From IMG/VR virus record IMGVR_UViG_2698536649_000009: DNA of 4,687 bases; one strand, 5' to 3'. The stretch is from a virus. Its lineage: Duplodnaviria; Heunggongvirae; Uroviricota; Caudoviricetes. The notes beneath the pieces were generated by a model that was not told the origin of the DNA, searched no databases, and was given only the letters and a program-made list of their open reading frames with translations. The translations under genes and the position numbers were made by a program. How positions within the stretch are numbered: position 1 is the first letter of the stretch; the number at the start of each line of letters is the position of its first letter. Positions 1 to 4,687 of this stretch are shown in pieces.

Positions 1-1246
1 CATCTGCCATTGCGCAAGATGGTTGCGGTTTTTCTTCATCATTTTCTTCTTCTTCTGTTTCCTGCTTAGCAGACAGTTCGCGGTTAACTTCTTCCAGGAT
101 ATCTTTTTCCGGTGTATGTCGTGCAGCAGTGAGAGTTTCCTTGCTGGGGTTCTCGTGATCAGTCTCCGTTAAGTAGGCGTTGATATACCCCTGAAGGCGT
201 CCCGGGTAGTGATAAAACTCAGGGTGAGCGCTCCGGATAAGTGCAAAAATAGCGGCGCGGGAATAGTCCAGAATACCCGGGGTTGCGCGAAGTGCTGCGG
301 ACCATTCTTTGAACGGACTTTCTCTTTTCAGGACGATTTCTTTTGCGCGACGATAAACGCTGCCCGGAATTTCATAAATATTAAAATCCATCGGAAGTGT
401 GGCTGCTGCAATCTCCACATCCAGCGTATCGAAGGTGTGTACTAAATTCGGATTGCGATCGGTTTTGTTCCCGCCACCGGCATTTGCACCGGAAGCCGTA
501 CGGGTGATACGCGAAACACGATTTCCTTTCATCCACTCTTTTGTCAGCAGACCCCGATCAGTGTAGTCAGCGTCCAGGTATGCCTCGAAAAAAGCAGTTA
601 TCAGTCCCAGGTCTGAATTACCGGGATTAGGGAAAACTTTGTCAGTGTCGCGTACCAGTTTGTGAAGGTCGCGAATCTCCAGCGGGTCGAGCAGCTTTGT
701 TTTGTGAGAAATGGCCAGGGCAGTAACAGCCGGCAGTTCTTCCGCCCGTGCTATATGTAATGCCTGAAGTTCTTCCCGTGCAACGTGCGTTACTGGTTTT
801 TCGCTGCCGTGTTGCGCAAGCCAGCGAATGGGCAGCTCCTGACCAGAAACCGGCAGGAGCATATTCTCCTCAATCTCCGTCATGTCTTCGCCGTTGACGT
901 TGGTATTGTCAGTACTGGCTGGTTTCTCCTGCACGGAGGGAGAGGGCGCGATAAATACCATTGTAATGCCATCTTCCCCGCCTTTTTCGTATCGGTTGCA
1001 GAATTCGGTATCAAACACGCCTTCAGGTGGAAGGTCATTCACAACGGGTAAATGGACGCGAACGGGTTTTTTAAAGTCGTCTTCATCATAATCGTTGTCA
1101 TCCATTGCGGTAATGCAGCGGGAGATGGCAACAGATAATTTTTTTGCTGTAGTCCAGTAAAAACCACCTTTAATTCCCAGACGTTTTCTGACTTTGTCAT
1201 TTTTTGCTTCGCAATATAGCGCAAATTCTTCTTTATCAGTGCTCAT
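1..1246 (-). CDS. recE: Exodeoxyribonuclease VIII (RecE)-like protein, N-terminal 415 codons; gene continues beyond the left edge of the window
   Basis: Hand translation of the minus strand from ATG 1246-1244 is open with no stop down to position 1 (MSTDKEEFALYCEAKNDKVRKRLGIKGGFYWTTAK...NTNVNGEDMTEIEENMLLPVSGQELPIRWLAQHGSEKPVTHV...KVFPNPGNSDLGLITAFFEAYLDADYTDRGLLTKEWMKGNRVSRITRTASGANAGGG...DEEKPQPS). GAGG Shine-Dalgarno 7 nt upstream of the ATG. Several long segments match my recollection of E. coli RecE; this is memory, not a search. It was not in the ORF track because it runs off the window. Confidence 0.75.
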   Translation of the reverse strand, partial: MSTDKEEFALYCEAKNDKVRKRLGIKGGFYWTTAKKLSVAISRCITAMDDNDYDEDDFKKPVRVHLPVVNDLPPEGVFDTEFCNRYEKGGEDGITMVFIAPSPSVQEKPASTDNTNVNGEDMTEIEENMLLPVSGQELPIRWLAQHGSEKPVTHVAREELQALHIARAEELPAVTALAISHKTKLLDPLEIRDLHKLVRDTDKVFPNPGNSDLGLITAFFEAYLDADYTDRGLLTKEWMKGNRVSRITRTASGANAGGGNKTDRNPNLVHTFDTLDVEIAAATLPMDFNIYEIPGSVYRRAKEIVLKRESPFKEWSAALRATPGILDYSRAAIFALIRSAHPEFYHYPGRLQGYINAYLTETDHENPSKETLTAARHTPEKDILEEVNRELSAKQETEEEENDEEKPQPSCAMAD

Positions 1247-1338
1247 TGATAAACCTCATTACAGATTTAAGGGTGAACAAATCCCTGCCATTGCTGGCAT
1301 TTTTAATCCGTTGGTATGGTGTTAATATGGCTGGAGGG

Positions 1339-1527
1339 TTATCCAGCCGGTGTTTCGTTATTCAGGTACAGCGATACTTTTTTTACCGGGAGGCATTCAC
1401 CAGAAATTTTTTGCTCGTCTCTTGCCTGGAGGCAGGATTCTTTACTGGCATAAATTCCGGTAATCACATTCTGTGATTCACCCGTTATAAGAAAAACCGT
1501 CATCATCAGTGCAAATGCTGAAGTCAT
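1339..1527 (-). CDS. ydfD: YdfD-like small protein (62 aa) with N-terminal hydrophobic segment; putative membrane/lysis protein of the dicB operon
   Basis: ORF track 62 aa (MTSAFALMMTVFLITG...). GGAG Shine-Dalgarno 7 nt upstream of ATG 1527. ATGA overlap with the dicB stop (1524-1527), i.e. translational coupling. Position immediately after dicB matches the K-12 Qin dicB-ydfD arrangement as I recall it. Confidence 0.55.
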   Translation of the reverse strand: MTSAFALMMTVFLITGESQNVITGIYASKESCLQARDEQKISGECLPVKKVSLYLNNETPAG

Positions 1528-1712
1528 TGACGTTCTCCGAAAATACCAAGTTCAAGAAGAGCAATTCGGGAAAGTATGGAATTATCATTGAGCAGATAAG
1601 GCTCATATTTCCTCATGTTAATGGCATCTTCAGTAAACTCCCGGTTACTGAGCAGAACACCAATATCAAAACAACCTTCAGACGTATTAACGTTTGGTAA
1701 TAACGTTTCCAT
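1524..1712 (-). CDS. dicB: Cell-division inhibitor DicB (62 aa)
   Basis: ORF track product METLLPNVNTSEGCFDIGVLLSNREFTEDAINMRKYEPYLLNDNSILSRIALLELGIFGERQ. The N-terminus closely matches my recollection of E. coli K-12 DicB (MKTLLPNVNTSEGCFEIGV...FTEDAIN...), and the length is the same. GAGGA Shine-Dalgarno 7 nt upstream of ATG 1712. DicF lies immediately upstream, as in Qin. Confidence 0.85.
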   Translation of the reverse strand: METLLPNVNTSEGCFDIGVLLSNREFTEDAINMRKYEPYLLNDNSILSRIALLELGIFGERQ

Positions 1713-1803
1713 TATCGCGTCCTCAACAATGAATTTTGTGATGCAGTGCCTGGTGCCTCCAGGTGACGTTAACCAGTTAACAATTAACGAATCACTTTAA
1801 AAA

Positions 1804-1856
1804 GGGCGGCAGAGCAGCCACGGAGTAAAACTGATACCGCCAAACGTCACCAGAAA
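1804..1856 (-). ncRNA. dicF: DicF small regulatory RNA (53 nt) with downstream U-run (plus-strand A-run 1799-1803)
   Basis: Minus-strand sequence TTTCTGGTGACGTTTGGCGGTATCAGTTTTACTCCGTGGCTGCTCTGCCGCCC followed by TTTTT. This matches my recollection of K-12 DicF apart from possibly one base. GGCGG...CCGCC closes a terminator-like stem before the U-run. Correct synteny, just upstream of dicB. Confidence 0.8.
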
Positions 1857-2133
1857 ATTGATAACAGAGGGCGTTGCAGCGGGGTTGTCACTTAAGCGTA
1901 TGGTCAACCTGACAACCCGGTGTCCTCAATGGGGAAGGAATAACCCCGCCATACTTACCGCCGCGCCATTTCGCGGAGTGCCACAACCGGAAGCGCACGT
2001 TCGAAGAAATCTAACGACAAGCCTTCTAAGGGAAAGAGCTTCGCCGTACGCTTTCGCGTTATGCACTGACTTTTCAGGGAAATATCCTTTCAGTAAACTG
2101 TCAGTACCGGATTCTTATCCGTGTCCGGCGCAC

Positions 2134-2167
2134 GACCACACGTGACAGCGTGTTGGTCTCCATTTTT
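2134..2167 (+). terminator. Terminator-like hairpin: 9-bp stem with one bulge (GACCACACG / CGTGTTGGTC), 6-nt loop, then TCCATTTTT
   Basis: Inverted repeat 2134-2142 / 2149-2158 with T-run 2163-2167, read directly from the sequence. Sits 27 nt upstream of the 2194 start codon. On the minus strand it is part of the long dicF precursor leader instead. Confidence 0.3.
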
Positions 2168-2193
2168 AACCCAGAACCTCAATGGAGGATAAA

Positions 2194-2403
2194 ATGCCAA
2201 ACAAAAAAAGAAATCCGCTTATTGAAAAACAGATTGAATGCCTGGTAAATCAACTCAGGCAATCAGGGTTATTAAAAACTCATTCAGAGTTGAGGCTCAC
2301 AGAATCAGCATTCGACGATAAATTAAATAATGTCCTTTATAATGGCATTATTGATTTTAATCGTTCTGTTGGTCGCTGCGGCCCTGCTGGTGTTTCCTTA
2401 TAA
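2194..2403 (+). CDS. Hypothetical small protein (69 aa), convergent with the cargo gene
   Basis: ORF track 2182..2403; the second in-frame ATG at 2194 is preceded by a strong GGAGGA Shine-Dalgarno (2184-2189). A 70-codon open frame in an AT-rich segment with no competing minus-strand ORF. Product MPNKKRNPLIEKQIECLVNQLRQSGLLKTHSELRLTESAFDDKLNNVLYNGIIDFNRSVGRCGPAGVSL, not recognised. Confidence 0.45.
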   Translation: MPNKKRNPLIEKQIECLVNQLRQSGLLKTHSELRLTESAFDDKLNNVLYNGIIDFNRSVGRCGPAGVSL

Positions 2404-3042
2404 TTACCAGTCAATCCAGAGTGGACCGTGTTCAGCGTAAATATAACTGTACACATCCAGATTATATTTGTGGTCTGTTAAGAACAGGCCGCAAATACAT
2501 GCCGAAGCTTCCAGTGCAGCGGCTCTGTTACTGAATAACCATGTAGCAACATTCCAGCGTTTTTCTGCATCCCAGTCTTTCTCAAGGCCTGATACCATGA
2601 AGAAACCGTTAGTGTTGCCATCAAATAATTCTGTTTCCAAATTTTTAAGCAATGCCTGATGGACTCTTGCCAGGTATTCCGCCGGAATTTCGCCACGAAT
2701 TCTGATGAGATTGTCATAAACAAACATGTTCCCCGCATATGGCGATTTTTCTTTCTTGTTTTTTAAACCAGCATCATGAGCAAACTGATCAATTTCTTCT
2801 TCCGTTGGTTTCGTATTGATGTTTTGCGCTGTCGTTTCTGCAATTTTATTTGCCACACTCTCTGAGTCGTGTTTATTTATAGACGCACAGAAATACAATC
2901 CGGTAAACGCATCGCGCACATTACGAGCCATATTATCAGTGTCTTTTTTCGTTACCGATTCCAATTCAAGTTCGTTCAGACGATGACGAAGTGTGTGTGC
3001 TGCAATCTCCTGGATTGAAGGAGGTAAATCTTTAAATTCCAT
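2404..3042 (-). CDS. Hypothetical protein (212 aa), unrecognised cargo gene between ydfA-like and dicF; an alternative start at 3054 gives 216 aa
   Basis: Long minus-strand ORF (ORF track 2404..3054). The ATG at 3042 has a GAGG Shine-Dalgarno 6 nt upstream. The upstream ATG at 3054 overlaps the ydfA-like stop (minus-strand TGATG). Product MEFKDLPPSIQEIAAHTLRHRLNELELESV... has no motif I can assign; no YxDD, no obvious nuclease or NTPase signature. Confidence 0.8.
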   Translation of the reverse strand: MEFKDLPPSIQEIAAHTLRHRLNELELESVTKKDTDNMARNVRDAFTGLYFCASINKHDSESVANKIAETTAQNINTKPTEEEIDQFAHDAGLKNKKEKSPYAGNMFVYDNLIRIRGEIPAEYLARVHQALLKNLETELFDGNTNGFFMVSGLEKDWDAEKRWNVATWLFSNRAAALEASACICGLFLTDHKYNLDVYSYIYAEHGPLWIDW

Positions 3043-3053
3043 CGTCAACCTCA

Positions 3054-3206
3054 TCAGTCAGTGTTTCTGGCTAACCAGCGACGCGCGCCAGCTTCAGTTT
3101 TAAACGTTTTGCTTTTGGTATACGTCATCGCGGTGAACGTACCGTCCTGGTTGGGGAACACGCCACATACCAGAGATTCGTTGTTGCCAAGATTGAGCGT
3201 ATCCAT
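3054..3206 (-). CDS. ydfA: YdfA-like small protein (50 aa, DUF1391-type); the ORF track gives a longer 77-aa version starting at 3287
   Basis: MDTLNLGNNESLVCGVFPNQDGTFTAMTYTKSKTFKTEAGARRWLARNTD resembles my recollection of K-12 YdfA (about 51 aa). The internal ATG at 3206 has a GAGG Shine-Dalgarno 5 nt upstream. First gene downstream of the repressor, as ydfA follows dicA in Qin. Confidence 0.6.
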   Translation of the reverse strand: MDTLNLGNNESLVCGVFPNQDGTFTAMTYTKSKTFKTEAGARRWLARNTD

Positions 3207-3385
3207 GTTGACCTCATTTCCCCTTAACGCCGGGGTAGCGGAACAAAAACCTGCTGCATAGTTATTAAAGTTGAACCCTGCCGTCATGTTCTTACGCCTC
3301 GGGCTGGCTACTTAACCCCTGACCACTGCCTGGTAACTCGAAGTATTGCCCTGCATTCTGTGGGGCGGGGTGAGGGAATGAATGA

Positions 3386-3414
3386 AGTTTAGAAAAACGA
3401 ACATTTAAGGTCAA
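3386..3414 (-). promoter_or_regulatory. Candidate sigma70 promoter for the leftward ydfA-like/dicB-type operon: -35 TTGACC, 17-bp spacer, -10 TAAACT on the minus strand
   Basis: Read directly from the sequence: plus-strand GGTCAA at 3409-3414 and AGTTTA at 3386-3391. Position is analogous to dicBp between dicA and ydfA. Not validated. Confidence 0.3.
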
Positions 3415-3434
3415 TGTTTTTTTATCAAAACATT
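3413..3434. promoter_or_regulatory. Operator-like palindrome AATGTTTT-TTTATC-AAAACATT (core GTTTT-N6-AAAAC at 3416-3431) overlapping the -35 of the candidate promoter
   Basis: Perfect 8-bp inverted arms read from the sequence. Same GTTTT-N6-AAAAC architecture as the sites in the repressor/cro intergenic region. Confidence 0.4.
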
Positions 3435-3498
3435 TTAAGCAGGCAGCTGTTACGCCATCACTACGATGGCATACAGTTAATCAAATAGATGAGGTTGG

Positions 3499-4137
3499 TT
3501 AAATATCTTGTTGAATTTTAAAGCATACTCCCAATATGCAAGATAGATCATCCAGCATAATTGAAGGGTAGCGAGGATTCGTGGGGACTAAAAGAATATC
3601 CGGCCCTTCTATCTCCAGTTTGCGAATGACAGGCGTTGTGGTCCCTTTGGGTAAGGCAAGGACAATATTTCCTGGTTGTACGATTCGATCGGGATCAACA
3701 AAAACTGTTGAACCATTTGGGATGGAAACTCCACCACCAGATGTCGACATACTGTCACTCTCTAGAACAACAGCAAAGGTATTGGCCGGGATTTCTCCGA
3801 CAAGCTGCACACAAGAGGTTATTGAGGAATTTTTCATATAATCACTCCAGCTTGCTGCCTGCTGAAGTGATAGTAGCGGAACCGTTTTTATCGGCGGTAA
3901 AGATAGATCAAGCGAATCACCTGTATTTAACTCTCCTCCATTAAGAAGCCAATTTTCGTTTACTTTCAATATCTTTGCCAGTGAACTTATGTAACGCGAG
4001 GACGGCGCTCCTCCACCGTTCATCCATTGACTTACGGAGCCTTTTGATGCGCCAGTGGCATTGACAAGGTCTTTGCCTTTCAAGTTTAGCGCATGCATAC
4101 GTTGGGTTATGCGTTCAGATATTGTTTGCTTGTTCAT
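3499..4137 (-). CDS. CI/LexA-type prophage repressor: N-terminal XRE helix-turn-helix plus C-terminal S24 autopeptidase domain (212 aa)
   Basis: ORF track 212 aa. HTH segment LKGKDLVNATGASKGSVSQWMNGG. S24 catalytic motifs LESDSMSTSGG (Ser, matching the G-D/E-SM pattern of LexA, UmuD and lambda CI) and VIRKLEIEG (Lys). Divergent from a Cro-like gene. No Shine-Dalgarno upstream of the ATG. Confidence 0.9.
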   Translation of the reverse strand: MNKQTISERITQRMHALNLKGKDLVNATGASKGSVSQWMNGGGAPSSRYISSLAKILKVNENWLLNGGELNTGDSLDLSLPPIKTVPLLSLQQAASWSDYMKNSSITSCVQLVGEIPANTFAVVLESDSMSTSGGGVSIPNGSTVFVDPDRIVQPGNIVLALPKGTTTPVIRKLEIEGPDILLVPTNPRYPSIMLDDLSCILGVCFKIQQDI

Positions 4138-4199
4138 GTTTTGATTTTAAAACACAGATGGTTTTGTTTCTTGACTTTCTTTGGTTTTGATTATTAAAC
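4138..4199. promoter_or_regulatory. Immunity-switch operator/promoter region: GTTTTG-initiated repeats at 4138, 4161 and 4184 (23-bp periodicity); palindromic 16-bp sites R1 GTTTT-GATTTT-AAAAC (4138-4153) and R3 GTTTT-GATTAT-TAAAC (4184-4199)
   Basis: Repeats read directly from the sequence; the 23-bp spacing is like lambda OR1-OR2-OR3. Candidate rightward promoter TTGACT (4171-4176), 18-bp spacer, TAAACT (4195-4200). Candidate leftward -10 TAAAAT (plus 4144-4149) placed for a leaderless repressor transcript. Confidence 0.5.
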
Positions 4200-4228
4200 T
4201 TTTGGCGTTCAGTTTTATGGAGCGACTC

Positions 4229-4471
4229 ATGAAAAAATCAGAAGTATTAGGCTATTTTGGCGGAGTTGTTAAAACAGCCGCCGCTCTAGGAACGTCAAAA
4301 ACCACAGTCAGCATGTGGGGGGAAGACGTTCCGTGGAAATGGGCGTTGCTAATTCAGGCAGTCACTGCCGGGGCGCTCAAATATGAGTTACACATACCGA
4401 CGGTTGTCATTCCCGATTCTGATCATAATCCGCCTTCTAACCAAGGGGGGATTCATGAAAATCAAGCATGA
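4229..4471 (+). CDS. Cro-like HTH regulator (YdaS/DicC-type), 80 aa
   Basis: ORF track 4181..4471 begins at a TTG; the in-frame ATG at 4229 has a GGAG Shine-Dalgarno 6 nt upstream. Product MKKSEVLGYFGGVVKTAAALGTSKTTVSMWGEDVPWKW... contains an HTH like YdaS/Cro family proteins. Divergent from the repressor. Confidence 0.7.
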   Translation: MKKSEVLGYFGGVVKTAAALGTSKTTVSMWGEDVPWKWALLIQAVTAGALKYELHIPTVVIPDSDHNPPSNQGGIHENQA

Positions 4472-4687
4472 ACACATCCGCATGGCGATGAATGCCTGGG
4501 CGCGTCCTGATGGCGAAAAAGTTCCGGCAGCTGGAATAACCCAGGCTTATTTTGAGTTGGGTATGACGTTTCCTGAACTGTACGACGACAGCCATCCGGA
4601 AGCCCTGGCTCGCAATACCCAGAAAATTTTCCGCTGGATAGAGAAAGACACCCCTGATGCAGTTGAAAAAATGCAGGCTCTGTTACC
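4455..4687 (+). CDS. ydaT: YdaT-like protein (proposed CII functional analogue), N-terminal 77 codons; continues beyond the right edge
   Basis: Open frame from ATG 4455 to the window end (MKIKHEHIRMAMNAWARPDGEKVPAAGITQAYFELGMTFPELYDDSHPEALARNTQKIFRWIEKDTPDAVEKMQALL). G-rich Shine-Dalgarno AAGGGGGG just upstream. Overlaps the cro-like gene by 17 nt. The MKIKHEHI start matches my recollection of YdaT. Not in the ORF track because it has no stop in the window. Confidence 0.6.
   Translation, partial: MKIKHEHIRMAMNAWARPDGEKVPAAGITQAYFELGMTFPELYDDSHPEALARNTQKIFRWIEKDTPDAVEKMQALL

Follow-up and report, generated by a model that had tools for sequence, protein, structure and literature searches.

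The window analyzed here, the whole 4,687-nucleotide stretch of DNA, represents the lambdoid (P22-like) immunity region of an E. coli prophage and carries the gene for a CI/C2-type repressor of 212 aa (3499..4137, minus strand), in which Pfam recognized HTH_3 and Peptidase_S24 domains. The cro gene (4229..4471, plus strand), encoding an 80-aa protein of the P22_Cro family (Pfam, 1e-15), is divergent from the repressor gene, with a gap of 91 bp between the two. It is followed by a ydaT-like gene (4455..4687, plus strand; Pfam YdaT_toxin), the functional equivalent of CII, which is truncated by the window end. Over the 77 residues in the window, its product is 92% identical to YdaT of prophage CP-933P, for which a CII-equivalent role has been described (PMC8630535).

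The early-left operon (2..3287, minus strand) was delineated using Pfam, Rfam, and the annotation of an identical region in O157:H7 TR01. It comprises, all on the minus strand, a ydfA-like gene (DUF1391, 3054-3287), a 216-aa ORF (2404-3054), the DicF RNA (1804-1855; Rfam, 75 bits), dicB (1524-1712), a DUF1482/ydfD-like gene (1339-1527), and a recE-like exonuclease VIII gene (2-1246). A promoter scan placed a PL-type promoter for the ydfA-like gene, DicF, dicB, and recE, TTGACC-17-TAAACT, at 3386..3414 on the minus strand, and a PR-type promoter for cro and ydaT, TTGACT-18-TAAACT, at 4171..4200 on the plus strand. A hairpin lacking a U-tract was observed at 3454-3470, between the repressor gene and PL.

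PL is followed by a conserved leader (3288..3372, minus strand) that is common to Rac, CP-933P, and ~3700 E. coli genomes, and whose upstream end bounds the immunity module on its left. The first nucleotides similar to Rac and CP-933P lie 13 nt 3' of the PL -10, and no similarity was found upstream. Because this homology ends just 3' of the predicted -10, the promoter and its operator are part of the immunity module. A K-12 match at 3280-3372 that was considered as Qin dicBp turned out to be the Rac PL leader. When the leader was analyzed as a put- or nut-like structured RNA, the fold z-score was ~0 and Rfam returned no match at E up to 1; no boxA was seen in it.

The repressor is 28% identical to P22 C2, whose HTH and S24 architecture it has, and DicA matches its N-terminal domain at 37% identity. 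The Ser/Lys dyad of P22 C2 and lambda CI has its aligned counterpart in Ser129 and Lys173. However, where C2 and CI have the Ala-Gly bond at which they are cleaved, the repressor has Ala94-Ala95, and an Ala-Gly or Cys-Gly bond for self-cleavage was not found in its linker. Relatives with 83-84% identical repressors have the same Ala-Ala pair. A literature search for Gly-to-Ala changes at LexA-type cleavage bonds returned nothing usable. The window Cro and P22 Cro share 47% identity (E=2e-14).

A palindrome common to both regulatory regions

The original prediction listed three sites of the form GTTTT-N6-AAAAC, two between the repressor gene and cro (OR) and one at PL (OL). Two of them match without mismatch: 3416-3431 (GTTTTTTTATCAAAAC) at OL and 4138-4153 (GTTTTGATTTTAAAAC) at OR. 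The third, 4184-4199 (GTTTTGATTATTAAAC), has the right arm TAAAC instead of AAAAC and therefore carries one mismatch. The arms of the exact sites extend further. At OL, they form a perfect palindrome with 8-bp arms (AATGTTTT/AAAACATT, 3413-3434), and at 4138 they read TGTTTT/AAAACA (4137-4154). The half-site can be written as approximately TGTTTTGAT, present as an inverted repeat with a core of 16 bp and an overall length of 18-22 bp.

The exact palindrome was found twice in the window, against 0.01 expected, and at least two copies occurred in 0/200 shuffles. With local composition, the probability of an exact copy in the OR gap was ~0.002, and that in the OL gap ~0.001. An unbiased repeat search returned the palindrome as the best repeat common to both intergenic regions, and no other common repeat was found in the two regulatory regions. 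Furthermore, the search across a prophage that had been proposed as a check was carried out in a 50-kb locus (L012) containing a complete prophage of the same immunity type, where the exact palindrome was seen at OR and OL and nowhere else. Scanning this locus with a half-site matrix gave scores of 21.4 and 20.9 for the two exact sites, and the next best sequence scored 13.1. The hexamer GTTTTG, reported to recur at 23-bp intervals on the plus strand, does so at 4138, 4161, and 4184; three evenly spaced copies appeared in 0/20,000 trials of a null with the composition of the AT-rich 91-bp intergenic region.

Both places are promoter regions, the GC content of the OR gap is 32%, and perfect 5+N6+5 palindromes of whatever sequence are slightly more numerous in the window than expected (7 vs ~4.6), as would suit a by-product of AT-rich promoter DNA, with UP-element-like A/T tracts and no operator function. 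We regard this explanation as extremely improbable. It is at odds with identical arms of 6-8 bp occurring twice at the probabilities given above, and with the uniqueness in 50 kb, the 23-bp periodicity, and the conservation described below. Most probably, the palindromes are operators at OR and OL of the region's own 212-aa HTH and S24 repressor, and very probably of the P22-type Cro as well.

Proposed operator units between the repressor gene and cro

The OR region contains two good dyads (4138, exact; 4184, one mismatch) and a half-site at 4161, which together overlap the PR hexamers and the -10 of a candidate PRM. The OR3-equivalent operator (4138..4153; 18-bp form 4137-4154) adjoins the repressor ATG (4137) and covers this -10; it has the highest half-site matrix score both in the window and in the 50-kb prophage locus. 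The OR1-equivalent operator (4184..4199) overlaps the PR spacer and -10. When held out, it ranked 3/4670 in the window, and it was 4th of ~50,000 in L012.

The unit between them, the OR2 equivalent (4161..4176, GTTTTGTTTCTTGACT), overlaps the PR -35. Only its left half-site is good (matrix score 7.5); the right arm reads TGACT, the right half scores -7.9, and the unit ranked 153/4670 in the window. The proposed likeness to the spacing of the three lambda operators thus stands as to the 23-bp steps, but its middle member is a half-site only. A fourth unit at the next 23-bp step (4207, GTTCAG), considered by analogy to the four repeats of CP-933P, ranked 422/4670 and was dropped.

The candidate PRM (4137..4149, minus strand) has the -10 TAAAAT (4149-4144), 7 nt ahead of the first base of the repressor start codon; its -35 is weak. 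As the repressor gene has no Shine-Dalgarno sequence, its mRNA is probably leaderless. This reading draws on the sequence together with the precedents of P22, paaR2, and lambda cI: the P22 RM transcript starts 4 nt ahead of the c2 ATG, making the P22 PRM near-leaderless like the candidate here, and neither paaR2 nor lambda cI has a leader (PMC8630535).

The proposed OL site and its position relative to PL

The OL operator (site A, 3416..3431) lies 65 bp 3' of the repressor stop codon and has the second-best matrix score in both the window and L012. It had been described as overlapping the PL -35. That hexamer occupies 3409-3414, and the 16-bp core of site A stops one base away, so the core adjoins the -35 rather than overlapping it; the extended palindrome does overlap it, by 2 bp. 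The centre of site A is at approximately -44.5 relative to the predicted PL start.

A second OL operator was considered at 3387..3402 (minus-strand GTTCG-TTTTTC-TAAAC), because a weak site resembling OL1 and lying across the PL spacer and -10 would be placed like 4184-4199 on PR and like P22 OL1. It was dropped as a constrained operator. Its matrix score (8.2) does not rise above background, and its left arm is different in every relative and polymorphic among the 80 loci of the population sample (3398 in 69/80, 3403 in 57/80). Operators over the PL core (spacer and -10), where lambdoid promoters of this type typically have two to three OL sites, were not found, and a single OL site is supported.

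This arrangement bears on a different role for site A, in which it binds repressor without being a classical PL operator and serves instead as a looping anchor, a block to read-through into dicBF, or a stimulator of PL, with Cro, host factors, or another regulator exerting the main control over PL. The core of site A overlaps neither hexamer of PL, and the site over the -10 is supported by neither score nor polymorphism. No intrinsic terminator was found from the repressor stop (3499) to PL, just the U-less hairpin at 3454-3470. Lambda CI centred near -42, close to the approximately -44.5 of site A, activates PRM rather than repressing it. Nevertheless, we consider such a role unlikely. In its extended, perfect form, the palindrome reaches 2 bp into the -35 and covers the A-tract upstream; in P22 and Qin, an operator lies just upstream of the TTGACC -35 at a repressed PL; and PL933P, at the homologous position, is repressed ~100-fold by its own repressor (PMC8630535).

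Conservation and distribution of the sites

The relatives compared were all close (at least 83% identity), and the population sample consisted of the best 80 loci of a viral contig scan, all 99-100% identical. In relatives with an 83-84% identical repressor, the palindrome is kept while the spacers vary: the units at OR and the site at OL persist, whereas the spacer at 4154-4160 and the cro leader have changed. The recognition helix SKGSVSQW is identical in these loci. The 4184-4199 site is unchanged in the relatives, and the 4161-4176 unit is unchanged in both the relatives and the population sample, although the PR -35 lies inside this same unit. Site A shows one arm change, at position 5. 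The PL hexamers are nearly unchanged, with TTGACC or TTGACT at the -35 and a constant TAAACT at the -10.

Among the best 80 loci, 4138-4153 has no polymorphic position, and the OR block as a whole has 1/64, compared with 39/217 in flanking non-coding DNA (p=0.0004), a conservation that is inseparable from that of the overlapping PR and PRM promoters. Site A has 2/22 polymorphic positions and a 1-nt deletion of the centre in 2 loci; its conservation in the population sample alone is not significant (p=0.39). A protein search returned no repressor homologues between 30% and 73% identity, and a genome contig scan for distant relatives found unrelated S24 proteins only. The immunity type is present in full in ~1041/5426 complete E. 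coli genomes, including O157:H7.

Comparison with P22, CP-933P, and Qin

The layout closely follows that of P22 immC, whose annotation is experimental. In both, the repressor and cro genes are divergent, the last OR operator (OR3 in P22) ends at the ATG of the repressor gene, and the OR units are spaced by ~23 bp. PL in both is 3' of and co-oriented with the repressor gene, with a TTGACC -35 and an operator just upstream. The two regions differ in the half-site (TGTTTTGAT with a 6-bp centre in the window, ATTTAAG with a 4-bp centre in P22) and in OL, where P22 has three sites, a strong one of which lies over the PL spacer and -10, and the window has one that is supported. Moreover, the window PL is followed not by N/gene 24 or a boxA nut site but by the ydfA-like/DicF/dicB operon, and its CII-type gene is YdaT, unlike P22.

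The second comparison was the CP-933P/Sp12 immunity region of E. coli O157:H7 (Jurenas et al., 2021; PMC8630535). The PR sequence TTGACT-18-TAAACT is the same as that found in CP-933P upstream of ydaS, where PR933P has been placed (PMC8630535). The PL leader and the ydfA-like gene are homologous to those of CP-933P, and the -10 is at most 1 nt off relative to the shared leader. In CP-933P, regularly spaced inverted repeats have a half-site that begins with GTTT (GTTTAGTAA), and PL933P is the target of both PaaR2 and YdaS in its ~100-fold repression, with operators common to PR and PRM (PMC8630535). In contrast, the window repressor and Cro show no alignment to PaaR2 or YdaS, the paaA2-parE2 toxin-antitoxin pair of CP-933P is not present, the OR units number three instead of four, and one OL operator is supported, compared with the three of PL933P (PMC8630535).

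In Qin, as in the window, an operon of ydfA, DicF, dicB, and ydfD lies 3' of and co-oriented with the repressor gene under a TTGACC promoter. Copies of the repressor operator are located at dicBp as well as between the divergent genes (PMC10448788, PMC3441716), the same two-place pattern as that observed here. The parallel drawn earlier with DicA and dicBp is apt, as DicA represses dicBp (PMC10448788). The DicA operator, TTGTTAG-N6-CTAACAA (PMC3441716), has the geometry of the window palindrome, with arms of 7-8 bp and a 6-bp centre, but it was absent from the window even when up to 3 mismatches were allowed. Further differences are that DicA is a protein of 135 aa without an S24 domain that is relieved by the antirepressor Rem (PMC10448788), compared with 212 aa and an S24 domain here; that DicC of Qin is unrelated to the window Cro; and that Qin dicBp has operator-like sequence in its spacer and -10, where the window has no supported site.

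A further question is which protein reads the palindromes. Sequence analysis cannot separate Cro from the repressor as the binder, and Cro is the closer homologue of a characterized protein. The sites are rich in A and T, and one mismatch separates TATCAAAACATTT from the core consensus of IHF, WATCAANNNNTTR. The main or sole reader of the palindromes might be Cro or a host nucleoid protein with a preference for AT-rich sites, such as IHF or Fis, with the CI-type repressor using another sequence. We judge this very unlikely. Repressor and Cro use the same operators in P22, lambda, and CP-933P (P22 annotation; PMC8630535), the two regulatory regions have no other repeat in common, and the N6-centred dyad is the geometry of the operator of DicA (PMC3441716), to whose N-terminal domain the repressor is related. 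The region's own repressor, very probably together with Cro, remains the preferred reader of the sites.

Discussion

The sequence itself shows the sites, that they do not occur at random, that they are conserved, and where they stand relative to consensus promoters. Together, the shared repeat, its uniqueness in 50 kb, its conservation, and the boundary of the immunity module support the proposal that the cI/cro switch and the ydfA-like/DicF/dicB promoter carry one and the same repressor specificity. Lambdoid phages canonically arrange OL and OR in this way, with lambda and P22 as the textbook type, so shared operators are expected rather than surprising; as P22, Qin, and CP-933P each have one repressor acting at OR and PL, the reading is supported but ordinary. 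No paper on this immunity type was found in the literature.

We infer the protein bound and the order of occupancy as follows. With 4184-4199 on the PR -10 and spacer and the half-site 4161-4176 on the PR -35, bound repressor would shut off cro, ydaT, and the lytic genes. The 4138-4153 operator lies on the PRM -10, and filling of this site by Cro or by surplus repressor would stop repressor synthesis. Since a palindrome lies against the -35 of the PL promoter that transcribes the ydfA-like gene, DicF, dicB, and recE, the repressor would silence this toxic operon in the lysogen. OL has one well-supported site, and the -10 candidate is polymorphic and unsupported. Repression of PL would likely come about through bound repressor masking the -35 and an A-tract resembling a proximal UP subsite, and looping between OL and OR across 722 bp may possibly help.

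Two points may interest specialists, namely the single OL site, placed upstream, and the Ala-Ala pair at the cleavage position. It is doubtful, albeit conceivable, that together they mark an unusual mode of control, in which PL would be repressed by a block to the contacts of the alpha-CTD and sigma region 4, or by looping, and direct SOS cleavage of the repressor would be weak or absent. If true, such control might leave PL leaky and could explain the expression of DicF from O157:H7 prophages in lysogens.

The finding makes no conceptual addition to the lambda/P22 paradigm. Its relevance lies in the position of this immunity type directly upstream of the DicF/dicB operon, which affects cell division, metabolism, phage resistance, and the regulation of EHEC virulence. 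The operator half-site and the promoter layout described here provide targets for reporter and mutational work on the timing of DicF and DicB expression.

Gene organization of the immunity region

The 4687-base window is the early regulatory region of an E. coli lambdoid prophage. A prophage in O157:H7 strain TR01 matches positions 3280–4480 with 100% identity, and of the 5426 complete E. coli genomes, ~1041 carry the immunity module in full. A minus-strand repressor gene (3499–4137; 212 aa, HTH and Peptidase_S24 domains) diverges from two plus-strand genes, a P22-family cro (4229–4471) and a ydaT-like gene that starts at 4455 and runs off the window. The leftward operon, on the minus strand, comprises a DUF1391/ydfA-like gene (3054–3287), a 216-aa ORF, the DicF RNA (1804–1855; Rfam, 75 bits), dicB, a DUF1482/ydfD-like gene and a recE-type exonuclease VIII gene. 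Of two possible starts for the ydfA-like ORF, 3287 gives 77 aa and follows a GAGG; the other, an internal ATG at 3206, is the one that PGAP and K-12 ydfA use, and Qin lacks the 5′ extension (window 3207–3287). Antisense within this operon is a 73-aa ORF (2182–2403, plus strand) with no match in a Pfam search; its 69-aa form (2194–2403) is annotated in TR01 as a hypothetical protein, and a promoter-like TTAACC-18-TAAAAT lies nearby at 2166–2195.

In TR01, where the 212-aa ORF is intact, RefSeq/PGAP annotates just the C-terminal 112 aa of the repressor (6220–6558 of locus L001, window 3499–3837); for some other genomes it lists separate ‘helix-turn-helix’ and ‘LexA family’ proteins. P22 C2 aligns from residue 1, which supports the long ORF. 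The catalytic dyad is intact (Ser129, Lys173). Ala94-Ala95 (codons 3853–3858, minus strand) aligns to the Ala-Gly self-cleavage bond of P22 C2 and lambda CI, and relatives with 83–84% identity also carry Ala-Ala, which may affect SOS inducibility.

Palindromes recur at the repressor–cro switch and the predicted leftward promoter

A consensus promoter scan predicted PR, driving cro, as TTGACT-18-TAAACT (4171–4200, plus strand) and PL, driving the leftward operon, as TTGACC-17-TAAACT (3414–3386, minus strand). The original prediction placed GTTTT-N6-AAAAC palindromes at three positions. Exact copies were found at 3416–3431 and 4138–4153, and 4184–4199 reads GTTTTGATTATTAAAC, with one mismatch. 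GTTTTG occurs on the plus strand at 4138, 4161 and 4184, as claimed; of these, the 4161 unit lacks a matching right arm. Both exact palindromes are longer than first described: the site at PL (OL) has symmetric arms of 8 bp (AATGTTTT/AAAACATT, 3413–3434), and the 4138 site has arms of 6 bp (4137–4154). An overlap of the palindrome with the PL −35 had been stated imprecisely, since the hexamer is 3409–3414: a single base separates it from the 16-bp core, and the 2-bp overlap is confined to the extended palindrome.

Two exact palindromes were observed versus 0.01 expected per window, and none of 200 shuffles gave two. Because both intergenic regions are AT-rich, the palindromes were retested against first-order Markov nulls, one built per intergenic region. 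For an exact palindrome, P was ~0.002 in the OR gap (91 bp) and 0.001 in the OL gap (211 bp), and none of 20,000 trials produced three GTTTTG copies at equal spacing. An unbiased repeat search of 3280–4240 returned the palindrome as the top repeat common to both regulatory regions.

The motif search suggested with the original prediction was run across a complete prophage of the same immunity type (ON470612, 50 kb including 13 kb of host DNA), whose repressor is 98% identical. Exact matches occurred solely at the two homologous positions. A half-site matrix trained solely on the two exact palindromes scored them at 21.4 and 20.9 in this locus, the next best position scoring 13.1. The held-out 4184-type site ranked 4th of ~50,000 there, and the held-out 4184 site 3rd of 4670 in the window. 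The fourth-best match in the window, TTGTTGAATTTTAAAGCA at 3508–3525, which lies in the 3′-terminal part of the repressor gene and 93 bp away from the centre of the OL site, is probably due to chance because its score (8.5) is at background level.

The OR units are centred at approximately −15.5, −38.5 and −61.5 relative to the predicted PR start near 4207, positions close to those of lambda OR1–3. The 4138 unit adjoins the repressor ATG. A TAAAAT hexamer (4149–4144) lies 7 nt upstream of the A of this ATG with no Shine-Dalgarno sequence, so the repressor mRNA is probably leaderless. The layout matches that of the annotated P22 record, where the OR operators reach up to the c2 ATG without overlapping it and RM transcription begins 4 nt ahead of this codon.

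The candidate operators are conserved among relatives

Among sequenced phages, the repressor matched three records at 95–99% identity and all others at <60% (the identity bands of the search); the relatives we looked at, such as P22 C2, share ~24–30%. A protein search revealed variants at 83–89% identity, and four contigs carrying 83–84% variants were recovered. In these, the SKGSVSQW recognition helix is unaltered and the OR units are kept, whereas the 4154–4160 spacer and the cro leader differ; likewise, at PL the two hexamers are kept along with the OL palindrome, whereas the intervening DNA differs. In the 84% variant, the ATGTTTTGAT half-site differs at its fifth T, which is C at OR3 (the 4138 unit) and A at OL, so this position is probably tolerant.

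In the best 80 IMG/VR loci, with repressors 99–100% identical, the OR block (4137–4200) was polymorphic at 1 of 64 positions versus 39 of 217 in flanking non-coding DNA (Fisher p=0.0004), a conservation inseparable from that of the overlapped promoters. The OL site (3413–3434) was polymorphic at 2 of 22 positions, with a rare 1-nt centre deletion, and its conservation alone was not significant in this sample (p=0.39). Taken together, the palindromes are conserved, real and non-random.

The DNA separating the OL site from the repressor stop codon contains a hairpin or palindrome, GCCATC-N5-GATGGC (3454–3470), with an invariant stem and variable loop in the relatives and the population sample. 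Lacking a downstream U-tract, it does not qualify as a canonical terminator. A promoter/terminator scan found no intrinsic terminator between the repressor gene and PL; read-through from the repressor gene, or a roadblock role of bound repressor, may occur.

Predicted PL and a single upstream candidate operator

Among the sampled matches from ~2,700 other E. coli genomes, most cover only 3280–3372, which in K-12 lies in Rac, downstream of racR. We aligned the window, Rac and a CP-933P-type locus, fetched with a primer from PMC8630535. From CACCCCGCCCC leftward the three are near-identical, and upstream they share no similarity; this boundary is 13 nt downstream of the predicted PL −10. The alignment shows that the predicted promoter and its putative operator travel with the immunity genes. 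CP-933P has a TTGACT/TAAACT promoter at the same place relative to the shared leader, and the PL933P fragment is repressed ~100-fold by PaaR2 and YdaS (PMC8630535), which supports 3386–3414 as PL of this prophage.

The shared ~85-nt leader (3288–3372, minus-strand RNA) begins CACCCCGCCCCACAGAA just downstream of PL. It is 95–100% conserved in ~3700 E. coli genomes and common to Rac and CP-933P despite unrelated promoters and operators. Its position is that of the lambda and P22 nutL; no significant fold was detected, and an Rfam search gave no match.

The leftward promoters of P22, Qin and CP-933P each carry an operator on the spacer and −10. The corresponding candidate here, 3387–3402 (minus strand GTTCG-TTTTTC-TAAAC), is placed on PL exactly as 4184–4199 is on PR. 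However, its matrix score is at background level, and its left arm differs in every relative and is polymorphic in most of the 80 loci. The site centred at approximately −44.5 is thus the sole well-supported candidate OL operator. Its promoter-proximal half, ATAAAAAAA (−46 to −38), resembles the consensus of the proximal UP-element subsite. Repressor bound there would most likely block sigma region 4 and alpha-CTD contacts, and looping to OR, 722 bp away, may reinforce repression.

Comparison with known lambdoid switches

The window Cro is 47% identical to P22 Cro, and its repressor 28% identical to C2. Qin DicA is 37% identical to the N-terminal domain of the repressor, whereas DicC is unrelated to Cro; the window lacks the DicA operator, TTGTTAG-N6-CTAACAA (PMC3441716). 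PaaR2 and YdaS of CP-933P are unrelated to the window repressor and Cro, but its YdaT is 92% identical and its PR has the same hexamers and spacing. The cro/ydaT junction (4440–4480) is a mosaic joint, Cro being P22-like and the overlapping ydaT-like gene CP-933P-like; by analogy, a PRE-type promoter would be expected near it (PMC8630535).

P22 PL, Qin dicBp and the window PL share a TTGACC −35, and in each an operator (putative in the window) lies immediately upstream of it. In P22 (record annotation), Qin (PMC10448788) and CP-933P (PMC8630535), the repressor of the divergent switch also acts at the leftward promoter; the proposal that a single repressor would control both the switch and the leftward operon here is therefore well supported, and it is exactly what the lambdoid paradigm predicts. 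Judged from sequence, the palindromes occupy the positions of OR and OL operators in a P22-like immunity region. For this immunity type, we found no description in the literature of the operator sequence (half-site ~TGTTTTGAT). The region follows a known architecture and logic, and two minor features, a lone OL site lying upstream and Ala-Ala in place of the Ala-Gly cleavage bond, could merit a small experimental follow-up.
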